The position numbers and the translations under genes were made by a program. The notes under the pieces are model-generated. The model was given only the letters and a program-made list of their open reading frames with translations, made no database searches and was not told the DNA's origin. From IMG/VR virus record IMGVR_UViG_3300031555_004297: 64,000 nucleotides of DNA; one strand, written 5' to 3'. This stretch comes from a virus. Lineage: Duplodnaviria; Caudoviricetes. Of the stretch, positions 36,686 to 40,600 are shown one piece after another; the first letter of the stretch is position 1, and each line of letters starts with the position of its first letter.

Positions 36686-36823
36686 ATGATTAAAATTCGT
36701 AACACCCCCCCCCCATGTCAGATTAGCGTAAAATCTTTCACGGGGCTCTCTTCCCGAGAGGTAGTTGGGGAACACAAATCAAATGATGTTAACCACATTT
36801 CAAAGAGGGGAGGTGTCCTGTAA
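36686..36823 (+). CDS. 45-aa leader peptide with a C10 tract, coupled (TAATG) to the DGR target gene
   Basis: late promoter 36648-36659; SD AAGGAGG; MIKIRNTPPPCQ...GGVL; stop 36821-36823 overlaps the ATG at 36823. Confidence 0.65.
   Translation: MIKIRNTPPPCQISVKSFTGLSSREVVGEHKSNDVNHISKRGGVL
36705..36714 (+). repeat. C10 homopolymer (candidate slippage tract)
   Basis: ten consecutive C in an AT-rich genome. Confidence 0.9.
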
Positions 36824-38223
36824 TGGGTCAGGCTTTAATTTCGCGTGGTGGTGGAGTTGGTGGTGCAGCAAAAGCTAAGGTGGAGATTATTGCTCCTCTT
36901 GGCGCAACACTTACGATATCCCAAGGCGATGTTGTCTTTACTAGAGAAGTAGAATCTTCTCCTGTGGAGATGAGCCTTGGGTATGGCGTTTGGACAATTT
37001 CTGCGTCCGGCGCTGCAACTAAAACCATCGATATTGATGTATTGAAGGTGTATGAAGTGAATGTAAGAGATGTAACTTATGGTATCAGTATTGATATGAG
37101 CAACGGCGCTCCTGCCGATGCTGTTACATATACTGATGATGCAGTGGGTTACTCCGCCCTGAGTTGTAACGATTCCACAGGTGCTTGTGATTACGGCAGC
37201 TGGGAAGGTGCAATTACAGGGATAATTGGATGTAAGCCTTGTCTTTATAAAGACGGTGCTCGTGTTGCATATCTCAATCCGAACAATTATGCTCAGCTTG
37301 AGAATGGCGGTGCCGCAGATATTACTTCCGGCAATGCTGGTGAAGTAATGGTTGAATTTAAGAAGACTTGGTATAAGTATGCAGTTTCTGGAGATACTTT
37401 GACTTTCCAGGTTGCCAACTACGATAGAACTGCAGATGGATTTGTCTGTTCTGCATTTAAGTCGAATGATGGCACTGCTACTGTAAAAGATTTTATGTAT
37501 TTCGGTGCTTATGAGGGCTATTCTGAAGGTGGAGATGATAAGTGTCATAGTTTGAGCGGTAAATCCGTTTGGAACAATAACTACTGGTCTTATTCTACTT
37601 TCAGAGATATCTGTAAGGCATTTGGCGCTAGTTATGGTATGGAAGACTGGGTTAAGAGATATTATATTCTCGGTTTGCTCATGCTTGTTACCAAGACTAG
37701 AGGTATTCAGGCCGCAATTGGAGATGGAAATGTCAATTCTGGAGATTTAATTAGTTCCGGATCTATGGATACTAGAGGCTTGTTCTATGGTATTAACGAT
37801 GATGGAAACACTGGCGTTAAAGCATTCGGAATTGAGCATCTCTGGGGTAATACTTATAGTTGGTGTGATGGTATCATTACTCTATCTGAATCGACTATTG
37901 GTCTTAAGGAGTGTGCTCCTTATAATGATAGTGGAGAAGGATATACTTCTGTTGCTGATGGAGCTACTAGAGGTTCATGGCAATATCCTACAAAGATGAC
38001 TCCTGTTCTTGGAGGAGCAGCAGTTGTAGCATCTACAACTCAGTCAGATTCTAACATTGGCTGGTGCGATGGCGTGTGTGTCGATGACTGCTCTGGCTAT
38101 GTTGCACAGGTTGGCGGCCACTGCAGCGCTGGTATTGGGGGTGGTGGCCCCTTCTGCGTCGTTATCGACTACAGCCCCAGCGACGGCAACGGCTATTGTG
38201 TGGGGCGGCTCGTTTCCGCCTAA
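36823..38223 (+). CDS. DGR target protein, receptor-binding/tail-fibre tip protein with C-terminal C-type lectin (CLec)-like fold
   Basis: 466 aa; GEVMVEF, YFGAYEG, FGIEHLWGNTYSWCDG and VGG...GPF...VGRL motifs; 3' end matches the TR. Confidence 0.9.
   Translation: MGQALISRGGGVGGAAKAKVEIIAPLGATLTISQGDVVFTREVESSPVEMSLGYGVWTISASGAATKTIDIDVLKVYEVNVRDVTYGISIDMSNGAPADAVTYTDDAVGYSALSCNDSTGACDYGSWEGAITGIIGCKPCLYKDGARVAYLNPNNYAQLENGGAADITSGNAGEVMVEFKKTWYKYAVSGDTLTFQVANYDRTADGFVCSAFKSNDGTATVKDFMYFGAYEGYSEGGDDKCHSLSGKSVWNNNYWSYSTFRDICKAFGASYGMEDWVKRYYILGLLMLVTKTRGIQAAIGDGNVNSGDLISSGSMDTRGLFYGINDDGNTGVKAFGIEHLWGNTYSWCDGIITLSESTIGLKECAPYNDSGEGYTSVADGATRGSWQYPTKMTPVLGGAAVVASTTQSDSNIGWCDGVCVDDCSGYVAQVGGHCSAGIGGGGPFCVVIDYSPSDGNGYCVGRLVSA
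38069..38223 (+). repeat. DGR variable repeat (VR)
   Basis: 155 nt, ungapped against 38594-38748; 26 mismatches, all opposite TR adenines. Confidence 0.97.
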
Positions 38224-38246
38224 TCCCTCGCCGAGTCAGGGGTGGT

Positions 38247-38272
38247 GTGGAGGGGACCACAGTCCCCTCCAC
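38247..38272 (+). other. DGR target-recognition hairpin/cruciform
   Basis: GTGGAGGGGAC-CACA-GTCCCCTCCAC, perfect 11-bp stem 23 nt after the VR; absent after the TR. Confidence 0.8.
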
Positions 38273-38276
38273 TACT

Positions 38277-38330
38277 CGACAATATGGCATAGCGAAGCGG
38301 CAGCGTAGCGTGCCATATTGTCGCCTTTTT
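38277..38330 (+). terminator. second hairpin, possible terminator after the target gene
   Basis: 13-bp stem CGACAATATGGCA/TGCCATATTGTCG followed by CCTTTTT. Confidence 0.6.
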
Positions 38331-38386
38331 ACATAAAATCTTACGATCTTACTTTTAAAACTTTCATAGAAAGGAGGATGGTAAAT

Positions 38387-38908
38387 ATGATTAAATTTAT
38401 TAATAACACTTGTATTTTTCATAAGATGAATAAATGTATACAGAATAAAATTGTTGTTTGTAAACTTACTAACTATTTAAATAGATCATGCAAACACATC
38501 GTTTCGTATTTGAATAGAACTAGTAAATTTATTCATAAGAGTGCTGGACGATGGCATCTTCTAGGGATAACGGAGAATCTCGTTCTGCGGGGTATGGCGT
38601 GTATGTCAATGACAACTCTGGCTATGTTGCACAGGTTGGCGGCAACTACAACAATGGTATTGAGAATGGTGGCCCCTTCTACGTCAATATCAACAACAAC
38701 CCCAACAACAACAACAACAATTATGTGGGGCGGCTCGTTTCCGCCTAAACCTATTCTGGACAATAGATCGATCTTGTCTATAGATCAAGCATTCTCGAGA
38801 GTGTTTTCTATTGCGGATAACTCCGATTCATCGAGTGTTACCAGTGTATATCTGAACTCTTTCTTGACTTCGAATTACAGGATGACTAAGAAGCATTGTA
38901 CAACATAG
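38387..38908 (+). CDS. uncertain 173-aa ORF reading through the TR
   Basis: strong SD AAGGAGG at 38371-38377, 9 nt before the ATG; no recognisable fold. Confidence 0.3.
   Translation: MIKFINNTCIFHKMNKCIQNKIVVCKLTNYLNRSCKHIVSYLNRTSKFIHKSAGRWHLLGITENLVLRGMACMSMTTLAMLHRLAATTTMVLRMVAPSTSISTTTPTTTTTIMWGGSFPPKPILDNRSILSIDQAFSRVFSIADNSDSSSVTSVYLNSFLTSNYRMTKKHCTT
38594..38748 (+). repeat. DGR template repeat (TR)
   Basis: AAC/AAT-rich copy of the VR (16 AAY codons), upstream of the RT gene. Confidence 0.97.
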
Positions 38909-39070
38909 GTGAATTCAACTCCGTTGAACCTTACCGGAAACGGTAAAATATTGCCCGTCTCGAGGTGGACTAGTAGCTTAAATGTCGAAGATCCGCTAGG
39001 GCTTGAATAGGGTTTAAACCTTATTCTAAAAGCTTAATAGACGAAAGACTTTAAGTCTTAGCAAAATAAA
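38749..39070 (+). ncRNA. structured 3' spacer of the DGR RNA
   Basis: TTACCG-GAAA-CGGTAA (38931-38946), TTCAAC/GTTGAA and AAGACTT/AAGTCTT hairpins between TR and RT. Confidence 0.65.
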
Positions 39071-39094
39071 TCATCTTAAGGAGGAAAATATTTT

Positions 39095-40600
39095 ATGCCT
39101 AAACGAACTGGACATCTATATGAGAAGATGCTTTCAATTAGAGTAGCGAGTGAAGCCTTTGATGGTGCTATGAGAGATAAGAAATTCAAGCACCGACCTG
39201 GTAGCATAGCTTTTATGCTTTACCATAACCGAGACTATTATATTGCTGAGGTAGGTCGTATATTAGAGACAGAATCATTCAAACCAAAGAAGCCAAGAGA
39301 GAGTATTAGATTGGATGCTGGTAGTGGAAAAGAACGCCATATCCAAGCCCCTGCTTTATTCCCAGATCAGATAGTTCATTGGTGTGTAATGCTTGTTCTT
39401 CAAGACATATTTTTGAAAGGAATGGATACATGGTGTTGTGCGAGTGTAAAGGGACGAGGTACCCTTTACGCTAAAAATTTTATTGAACGAACTCTTGATA
39501 ATTCTCAAGGTATAACAGGGCGAGATGCTCCTGAGCGGAAATACAAATACTGTCTAAAAATGGATATTAGAAAATTCTTTGAGAATATTGATAGAGGGAT
39601 TCTAATAGATAAACTAGAATCTAAAATCAAAGATCCTAAAATGATTAAGATCTGCTCAGATATAATTTATTCTGTTCCAGGACAGGGTCTTCCATTAGGA
39701 TACTATACATCTCAATGGTTTGCTAATTTTTATTTGCAATCATTCGATCATTATTTAAGAGAAGTTCTTATGCCTAAGTATGGTGTGGACTTCTATATTA
39801 GATATATGGATGATATGCTTATTATGGGAAGTAATAAAAGGAAATTAGCCCAACTTAAAGGAGAGATATCTCAATATCTTCATGATAATCTTAAGCTAGA
39901 ATTAAAGAATACTACAAGAATATTCTCTATTGCAGAATGTCCGATAGATTATATTGGATTTAGATTTTCTTATGGTAAAACAGTATTAAGAAAGAATATA
40001 TTGCATAGAGCTAGAGGCGCAAATGAAAGACTTTATAATGGTAAATTCCATATTAAAGAATTAAGAAGCTCTATGGCATATAATGGATGGATTCAGAATA
40101 CAGACACCAAACAATATAGAGCTCAGCATATGCAAGGATCTGTATATCTAGAACGAAAGAAAATTAGTGAATTCTCTAAGATTGAGCGATTAGAAACCTT
40201 AGCTTCCGAAAGGTATAAGCGGACTATAAGAATTGAAGAAGATATAATAAATCTTCGTCAAGAAACAGAGCTTGGTGATGGAGTTGTACTTATACGCCAT
40301 TATCCAGATAGGCACGATCAAGTCCGAGTAGTAGCTCGAAGCCGATATAGGTTTCCAGATCAAAACGAATATGAGGAAGAACTTAGAAAAGCTGCTGAAG
40401 AAAAGGCTAATAAGAAGAAAAAGAAACATAAAAAGAAAAAGCATAAACCTGGAGAAGCTTATAGAGCTCCAGCAGAGAGATATTTTGCAGAAGAAGGCAT
40501 GGAAGAAATTTATGCTCGAGATTATAATCAAAATATAAAAGATTATGATATCTATAGAGACCGACAAAACACAAAGGACGATTGGTATAAAGCCAAATAA
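39095..40600 (+). CDS. brt: DGR reverse transcriptase with C-terminal extension
   Basis: KERHIQAP..PDQIVH, LKMDIRKFF, GLPLGYYTSQWFANFYL, YIRYMDD and IDYIGFRF motifs. Confidence 0.95.
   Translation: MPKRTGHLYEKMLSIRVASEAFDGAMRDKKFKHRPGSIAFMLYHNRDYYIAEVGRILETESFKPKKPRESIRLDAGSGKERHIQAPALFPDQIVHWCVMLVLQDIFLKGMDTWCCASVKGRGTLYAKNFIERTLDNSQGITGRDAPERKYKYCLKMDIRKFFENIDRGILIDKLESKIKDPKMIKICSDIIYSVPGQGLPLGYYTSQWFANFYLQSFDHYLREVLMPKYGVDFYIRYMDDMLIMGSNKRKLAQLKGEISQYLHDNLKLELKNTTRIFSIAECPIDYIGFRFSYGKTVLRKNILHRARGANERLYNGKFHIKELRSSMAYNGWIQNTDTKQYRAQHMQGSVYLERKKISEFSKIERLETLASERYKRTIRIEEDIINLRQETELGDGVVLIRHYPDRHDQVRVVARSRYRFPDQNEYEEELRKAAEEKANKKKKKHKKKKHKPGEAYRAPAERYFAEEGMEEIYARDYNQNIKDYDIYRDRQNTKDDWYKAK

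Follow-up and report, generated by a model that had tools for sequence, protein, structure and literature searches.

Does a phage that carries its own transcription machinery also carry a working device for rewriting one of its own proteins? The question is raised by a cassette at positions 36823-40600 of a 64,000-nucleotide (nt) stretch of phage DNA (hereafter the window), which comprises bases 32001-96000 of a 185,246-bp IMG/VR record (IMGVR_UViG_3300031555_004297; CheckV completeness 75%). Jumbo phages that encode RNA polymerase (RNAP) have been studied as largely host-independent, strictly lytic viruses. The original prediction, made from the letters of this DNA, read the cassette as a complete diversity-generating retroelement (DGR) that diversifies a receptor-binding protein. 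Our analysis makes it very probable that the cassette is a functional DGR without the accessory protein Avd, laid out as target gene with variable repeat (VR), template repeat (TR) and reverse transcriptase (RT), in a gut jumbo phage that is uncultured and encodes multisubunit RNAPs of its own. It is a DGR recently active in nature, of a known Avd-less type and in a new phage context; its mechanism is already known.

Two repeats that differ at template adenines

A repeat search of the region returned one strong direct repeat (38069-38226 versus 38594-38751, 83% identity, offset 525 nt). The upstream copy, the VR (38069-38223), forms the 3' end of an open reading frame (ORF) at 36823-38223, which is the target gene; the downstream copy, the TR (38594-38748), holds 44 adenines and 16 AAY codons (Y, pyrimidine). 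Both lie on the plus strand, as do the other parts of the cassette described below. Over the 155 nt that end with the stop codon of the target gene, the two copies align without a gap and differ at 26 positions, every one of which is an adenine in the TR (20 A>G, 4 A>T and 2 A>C), with the substitutions spread over 38078-38198 of the VR; one additional A/T difference stands just past the stop codon. Adenines make up 44 of the 152 nt before the stop, a share of 0.29, so that under random placement the chance of 26 out of 26 mismatches meeting adenines is (44/152)^26, or p ~1e-14. All but one of these 44 adenines occupy codon position 1 or 2, and each of the 21 codons that differ between VR and TR specifies a changed amino acid. 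These counts agree with the original prediction, as does its arithmetic for the 16 AAY codons, from which 15^16, or 6.6e18, protein variants are reachable.

At its 3' end the repeat becomes GC-rich, in an element (38200-38223) that resembles the initiation of mutagenic homing (IMH) site of other DGRs and encodes an invariant VGRLVSA tail followed by the stop codon. A GC-rich 3' element had been predicted; its last 21 nt before the stop (38200-38220) are the same in VR and TR, and repeat homology stops 3-5 nt beyond the stop. Equivalents of this element are found in two related loci, L009 and L010, where 23 of 25 and 19 of 20 VR/TR mismatches, respectively, fall on TR adenines. A search for further VRs in the genome, which had been proposed together with the prediction, was run on the whole 185-kb contig using BLASTN and an adenine-wildcard scan, and found no further or remote VR, gene-less cassettes included.

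The target carries its VR on a predicted C-type-lectin fold

The target gene encodes a protein of 466 aa that matches phrog_5302 'tail protein' (E 2e-52). Its AlphaFold (AF2) model, built with 34 homologues and with a predicted local distance difference test score (pLDDT) of 90.6, consists of an N-terminal beta-sandwich, a central domain and a C-terminal C-type-lectin fold, and it is the sequence coding for the end of this predicted fold that forms the VR. Structure prediction of the target had been suggested as a check, and in Foldseek searches the best PDB matches of the model were two DGR variable proteins, TaqVP (5vf4, E 2e-7) and Mtd (1yu0, E 5e-4). In BFVD, dozens of proteins labelled 'tail collar fibre' matched the model over its whole length (E down to 1.5e-44, template modelling (TM) score 0.75), and the 'tail fiber protein' of the crAss-like phage cr55_1 was also among the structural matches. 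The claim that the target is a receptor-binding protein therefore stands in part: the model has the C-type-lectin fold, and the receptor role is suggested by this fold and by automatic 'tail collar fibre' labels. Variation in the VR most likely changes receptor specificity.

The reverse transcriptase and its C-terminal module

The third part of the cassette (39095-40600) is an RT gene of 501 codons, whose product combines an RT core (approximately residues 1-350) with a lysine-rich C-terminal module of ~150 aa. The protein matches RVT_1 (E 3e-13) and phrog_1423 'reverse transcriptase' (E 2e-82), and contains the motifs LGYYTSQWFANFYL and IRYMDDMLIMG (YMDD). The DGR hallmark in motif 4, [LIV]GxxxSQ, is present as LGYYTSQ, and the catalytic motifs are all intact; both the TSQ and the YMDD motifs had been predicted. 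Its best PDB match is the RT of Bordetella phage BPP-1 (bRT, 8ub7), and among the matches listed the nearest deposited phage RTs, at 31-36% identity, are those of Lactobacillus phage LBR48, Butyrivibrio phages, crAss-like phages and Psychrobacillus phage Perkons (DGR-type). In an RT tree the window RT groups with RTs from loci bearing VR/TR pairs and, on this sequence evidence, belongs to the DGR clade. It is 99% identical to P0160, the representative of its 90% cluster (24 sequences).

The C-terminal 150 aa (40145-40600, residues ~350-501) form a module that is conserved in ~25 clusters of RTs of 479-532 aa, encoded on contigs that, where long, measure 85-253 kb; the RTs of other related loci are shorter (343-411 aa). 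The module comprises a helix, a hairpin of the form 'VL[IV]RYY..VR[IV]VARS..FPD', a lysine run and the motifs 'Y.P[ST]AE[IR][YF]F' and 'DYN..I', and it had no match to a known domain.

The VR varies in nature around a near-fixed template

Diversification was judged from natural variants among metagenome relatives, at the protein level and for populations. Homologues of the target are numerous in metagenomes. In its own 90% cluster, taken together with P0001, 28 of 52 columns are variable in the VR versus 11 of 417 elsewhere, and three further target clusters, P0003 (16 members, 15 aligned), P0004 and P0006, have the same pattern, with the scaffold residues fixed. Of the first 38 codons of the VR, 20 are variable, and each of these corresponds to a TR codon that contains adenine; where neither position 1 nor position 2 is an adenine, the codon never varies. 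At AAY codons, adenine was retained in 39% of cases and had become G in 37%, T in 19% and C in 4%.

The TR itself is accessible in relatives through an ORF that crosses it and is reported by gene callers. This ORF was seen in 6 versions on ~25 contigs, and among them the 52 residues coded by the TR contain two variable columns and one codon deletion. The TR-coded segments on a 225,565-bp and a 180,124-bp contig are identical, whereas the target variants on contigs of the same two lengths differ in 22 of 51 VR codons (19 substitutions plus a gap), against 18 of 415 positions elsewhere in the protein. A hypervariable VR facing a near-fixed TR is, in these sequences, the expected footprint of mutagenic retrohoming, and since the VR varies while the template is fixed in related phages, we take the element to work.

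The VR also varies in length, by 0, +1 or +2 codons (P0108, P0002 and P0110), in a tract derived from (AAC)5AAT (VR 38180-38200, TR 38705-38725). No change in the TR-coded tract was seen between P0139 and P0140, the versions from the two genomes with the best pairing, and a further TR version, P0143, is missing one codon. The pattern may reflect slippage of the RT on the AAC run during cDNA synthesis. At the DNA level, searches of viral contigs and metagenome contigs returned no close relatives, and megablast against the phage collection gave no match.

Hairpins, a candidate spacer RNA and a proposed scheme for retrohoming

The hairpin that had been predicted after the VR is present at 38247-38272 as a perfect 11-bp GC stem with a 4-nt loop, and no such GC hairpin follows the TR. 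It recurs at the same position with other stem sequences in L009 (9 bp, 4-nt loop) and L010 (10 bp, 3-nt loop), in both of which it is kept by covariation; its function is predicted, and by analogy it is the counterpart of the BPP-1 hairpin/cruciform. A terminator-type hairpin with a 13-bp stem, a conserved 21-nt loop and a T-run (38277-38330), which would end the target transcript, recurs in L009 and L010 in the corresponding position, its stem differing in sequence, and the 109-nt stretch that holds both hairpins folds with z = -6.4. The loop of this terminator, AGCGAAGCGGCAGCG[T/G]AGCG, is common to the window and L009, its stem of 13-14 bp covaries, and L010 has a loop variant.

A second terminator-like hairpin with a T-run (40608-40645) lies directly after the RT stop codon, so that TR, spacer RNA and RT look like one transcription unit; it overlaps the nominal ATG of the ORF at 40608-41087 (orf159). 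The spacer between TR and RT contains, at 38932-39010, a candidate structured RNA resembling RT-18 (Rfam RF03021), a family that belongs to a series of RT motifs proposed to serve DGRs (Weinberg et al., PMC5737381). RT-18 aligns here end to end, at 26.8 bits (E 0.011 within the 346-nt spacer; gathering score 41.3), and sub-threshold matches occur at the same location in L088, L010 and L089. The RNA upstream of the LBR48 RT matches RT-18 at 59 bits, above the threshold, and in a control the Phage_DGR family reached 105 bits in the TR-brt spacer of BPP-1 itself. In an alignment, a block of the spacer is conserved in three lineages. The RT-18-like element is probably the counterpart of the BPP-1 spacer RNA. 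Rfam matches to mir-14 and ar7 were set aside as chance matches to hairpins.

With these parts, retrohoming would start from the TR-RT unit between the terminators at 38277-38330 and 40608-40645, transcribed as one RNA, which the RT would bind, probably by way of the RT-18-like element. The RT would then copy the TR into cDNA, misincorporating opposite template adenines, and this cDNA would take the place of the final 155 nt of the target gene, with guidance from the GC-rich 3' element that VR and TR have in common and from the DNA hairpin found after the VR only. Such a scheme would involve a priming element and would run independently of Avd. Its product would be a phage population with a tail-fibre-type protein that differs at ~29 adenine-encoded positions on the C-type-lectin fold's ligand-binding face. 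A mechanism of the BPP-1 type, as originally proposed, is supported by the adenine-only VR/TR differences, the DGR-clade RT and the C-type-lectin-fold target.

The phage and the cassette among its relatives

The ORF at 30525-34325 encodes an RNAP beta subunit (PHROG 3148, E 1e-142) that is ~31% identical to those of Staphylococcus phages S6, MarsHill and PALS_2, Listeria phage LPJP1 and Bacillus phage Goe21, and is more distantly related to those of phiR1-37 and phiKZ-like phages. A second beta-type gene is found elsewhere in the contig (Rpb2_6 matches at two loci) and a beta-fragment gene at 55347-56666; a PF04997 search of the contig did not detect beta'. The exact target and TR-ORF proteins are found on 5 and 10 contigs, respectively, from JGI, ENA and Logan, the longest of which is 225,565 bp. 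By these sequence criteria the phage is a jumbo phage with a genome of >200 kb, and the original assignment to RNAP-encoding jumbo phages holds, with beta paralogues at ~31% identity to AR9-like phages. No tyrosine integrase was found in the 185-kb contig.

A 224-kb relative (L005, L006, L009 and L012) shares 69% identity with the window in RNAP beta, 56% in the target and 53% in the RT, and has its own TR and adenine-only VR. The gene order RNAP beta - orf190 - HNH - target - TR - RT - orf159 - orf193 is common to the window, L005, L006 and L009 and, in part, L011. In a 221-kb relative, L003 (RNAP beta 61%, 89% complete), orf190 adjoins orf159; its fetched locus has no match to the HNH or target gene, and there is no RT anywhere in the record. 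The HNH homing-endonuclease gene (35742-36578, plus strand; phrog_2081/953, E 2e-26) adjoins the cassette without belonging to the DGR mechanism. It shares 78% identity with the L009 copy, compared with 48-56% for the flanking genes, and is present or absent together with the DGR, L003 being without HNH, target, TR and RT alike. Judging from these sequences, the cassette may spread by homing-endonuclease co-conversion.

Beyond this clade, the target family, accompanied by a DGR, is widespread in ordinary phage contigs of 20-60 kb, where the TR usually starts 70-140 nt past the VR. Three more large records have both an RNAP beta gene and a DGR (282 kb, 100% complete; 184 kb; 119 kb). They are among the large phage records L037, L038, L040 and L073/L075, whose DGRs, of unrelated lineages, have the same target family; DGR-bearing L040 (189 kb) has no beta match, and in L073/L075 the DGR again adjoins the RNAP beta gene. 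An RT phylogeny, one of the checks suggested at the outset, placed the RNAP-encoding phages in three separate, well-supported groups among small-phage RTs, and RNAP-encoding phages have therefore acquired or exchanged DGRs several times. The tree gives a minimum of three distinct DGR lineages for large phages that encode RNAP.

Alternative explanations

Several points weigh against a functional, Avd-less DGR with a receptor-binding target. A search for Avd (PF05635) found no match at E <= 10 in the 185-kb contig, and none at E <= 1 in five large records of related phages, of which two have a completeness of 90% or more; of the complete DGR that had been predicted, target, VR, TR and RT are present and Avd was found neither in the contig nor in these relatives. 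To our knowledge, BPP-1 is the only system in which the need for Avd has been tested, and there it is essential. The RT-18 match scores under the Rfam gathering threshold. The evidence for diversification comes from comparisons among relatives, at the population level, and the VR and TR versions of relatives were paired solely by the equal bp size of the contigs that carry them. Three contigs of the 224-kb relative from three metagenomes (L004, L005 and L006; IMG/VR 3300032167_000096, 3300031555_006358 and 3300029305_005724) are 100% identical over up to 18 kb, VR included, which implies either that turnover is not fast enough for every sample to differ, with a dominant VR allele stable across these samples, or that the samples are related. 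The location of the modelled target in the tail, finally, rests on its fold and on automatic labels.

The missing Avd and the identical VRs would both fit a fossil, that is, a DGR that once worked and is now inert here, for example through loss of Avd or another helper, with the VR diversity among relatives being old. We regard this as improbable: the RT keeps all its catalytic motifs and is nearly identical to its cluster representative, TR, hairpin and spacer RNA are all conserved, and VRs differ at ~40% of positions versus 3-4% elsewhere in the same protein, for which recent events are needed. DGRs without Avd are known, too: Architecture A, in which TR and RT occur without an accessory gene, accounts for 29% of DGRs (Wu et al. 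2018, PMC5758913). There is next to no chance, in our judgement, that the DGR of a small phage or a bacterium was mis-joined to a jumbo-phage contig during assembly, even though the target and RT families abound in 20-60-kb phage contigs and the cassette is encoded on the other strand from the genes around it, with a local switch in GC skew. A chimera at the cassette borders, the weak point named with the original prediction, is excluded by the gene order in the 224-kb relative and by independent assemblies: the order is the same in independent contigs, and exact target and TR-ORF proteins recur across three sequence collections on contigs of up to 225,565 bp. A more serious alternative, which we nevertheless consider unlikely, accepts the DGR and disputes the role of its target, which might be a mucus- or glycan-decorating or adhesion protein, or act inside the cell, instead of binding a host receptor. 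The 'tail' labels are automatic, the gene adjoins RNAP and small-RNA genes and is not inside a clear tail module, and the C-type-lectin fold of DGR targets serves many ligands (PMC5758913). The fibre genes predicted 2-6 kb downstream are weakly supported, by an ORF at 42827-43519 with matches to DUF4376 (E 9e-5, below the Pfam cut-off) and PHROG 'tail fiber' (E 1e-4). Against this, the target model resembles phage 'tail collar fibre' proteins over its whole length and also matches the cr55_1 fibre protein, its fold matches that of Mtd, a proven receptor-binding protein, and virion structural genes lie within 20 kb of it.

The missing Avd and an ORF through the template

Avd is found in 74% of DGRs and is essential in BPP-1, and it is not universal. 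Since none was found here, the functional DGR that we favour belongs to the known Avd-less Architecture A and is not a copy of BPP-1. C-terminal extensions of up to 150 aa occur in ~20% of DGR RTs (Wu et al. 2018, PMC5758913). The gene that follows the RT, orf159, was rejected as an accessory gene, as a homologue is also present in L003, a relative without a DGR. Its nominal ATG lies inside the RT terminator hairpin, and its homologues match only from approximately residue 42-50 on.

The TR lies within an ORF of 173 codons (TR-ORF, 38387-38908, plus strand), which has a good Shine-Dalgarno site and reads through the TR in the +1 frame, with equivalents in L009 (8605-9129, 174 codons) and L010 (3612-3962, 116 codons). 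This frame is open in all ~30 metagenome versions found, and the indels seen in them are all in frame; because the RT clusters of the same contigs have similar member numbers, frameshifted copies were not obviously missed. Against a protein product, the N-terminal part of the TR-ORF is not conserved among three lineages, its AF2 model has a pLDDT of 46 and a predicted TM score (pTM) of 0.23, and the sequence has no Pfam or PHROG match.

The TR may sit inside a translated gene, in which case one RNA would be both message and template. The basic nucleic-acid binding for which BPP-1 uses Avd may here come from the RT's lysine-rich C-terminal module. That these two lineage-specific parts together replace Avd in the jumbo-phage DGR lineage is a speculative and rather doubtful proposal. 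If it is true, a side effect may be the codon-length variation of the VR by slippage on (AAC)n.

Comparison with known systems

The window cassette shares with BPP-1 (mtd-avd-TR-brt) the adenine-specific transfer from TR to VR, the AAY-rich TR and the shared GC-rich 3' element; in both, the VR is the C-terminal face of a tail protein with a C-type-lectin fold (by the Foldseek match to Mtd), a GC hairpin follows the VR only and a structured RNA (a candidate one in the window) lies between TR and RT, and the closest solved RT is that of BPP-1. Unlike BPP-1, the window cassette is without an Avd gene, its RT has 501 aa with the conserved ~150-aa C-terminal module (bRT, 328 aa), its spacer RNA resembles Rfam RT-18 and not Phage_DGR (RT-10), and a terminator and the ORF running through the TR are located in its 370-nt VR-TR gap. 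The carriers also differ, BPP-1 being a 42-kb temperate phage and the window phage exceeding 200 kb, with its own RNAPs and no integrase in 185 kb.

The order target-TR-RT without an accessory gene is that of the Avd-less Architecture A1 (Wu et al. 2018, PMC5758913), exemplified by Lactobacillus phage LBR48, whose RT is the best phage match (33.5% identity) and is preceded by an RT-18 RNA. The window differs from the A1 examples in its jumbo-phage context and in the RT C-terminal module, a conserved feature of ~25 long-RT clusters. The DGRs of crAss-like gut phages (cr50_1, cr55_1 and others) also reside in gut phages of a non-temperate type; their RTs are 31-36% identical to ours, and targets of the same whole-protein architecture from crAss-like phages are found in BFVD. 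Those phages, however, belong to a different virus order, with a ~100-kb genome and a different RNAP system.

The closest isolates by RNAP beta (~31%) are Staphylococcus jumbo phages, and MarsHill, S6 and DC4 likewise have a 501-codon RT gene in an AR9-related, RNAP-encoding jumbo phage. That RT has an extra N-terminal domain, is accompanied by no TR, VR, IMH or Avd, and was judged not to be a DGR (Korn et al. 2020, bioRxiv 10.1101/2020.12.14.422802), in agreement with the DC4 paper (PMC10638138); the window, in contrast, has all DGR parts except Avd. We considered kinship between the two 501-aa RTs and saw none, with no Staphylococcus among the 30 matches listed or the named organism tallies.

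In a survey of 224 jumbo phages no DGR-type (FGS) lectin domain was found (Iyer et al. 2021, PMC7824862), Roux et al. 2021 do not discuss lifestyle or genome size, and in the literature searched no paper combines DGR anatomy with jumbo phages. DGRs are present in ~1/3 of high-quality gut phage genomes and in most of those that bear an RT, and are enriched in lysogenic ones (Nayfach et al. 2021, PMC8241571). The original prediction called a DGR in an AR9/phiKZ-like jumbo phage notable; that holds for the literature searched, and is softened by the frequency of DGRs in gut phages and by those of crAss-like phages. The record itself is taken from a public catalogue. Nor does the window cassette change the definition of a DGR, DGRs being very common in gut phages. 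What it adds is a classic tropism-switching device retained at one genomic position across a clade of gut jumbo phages, with a fibre-type protein visibly diversified in nature, and unrelated DGRs in at least two other RNAP-encoding large-phage lineages. It offers a concrete handle on the host-range dynamics of uncultured gut jumbo phages, and, for mechanistic work, a naturally occurring DGR without Avd whose RT tail and spacer RNA are distinct.

Other features of the contig

The contig encodes a ThyX-type thymidylate synthase outside the window (G000:C1:106940-107989; PF02511, 93.5 bits), and neither ThyA nor dUTPase was found in it. Retrohoming into uracil-DNA, as in AR9/PBS1, is made unlikely by the ThyX gene, whose presence argues against DNA of this type and does not settle the question. 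A single minus-strand ORF of 3692 codons (19289-30367), with weak tape-measure-like PHROG matches, separates the RNAP beta gene from a virion structural gene. On the other side of the cassette, orf159 is flanked by two copies of an 83-nt direct repeat (40645-40727 and 41158-41240, 81% identical), and a perfect 18-bp hairpin (41102-41144) stands between the two copies; repeats and hairpin look like promoter or small-RNA units.

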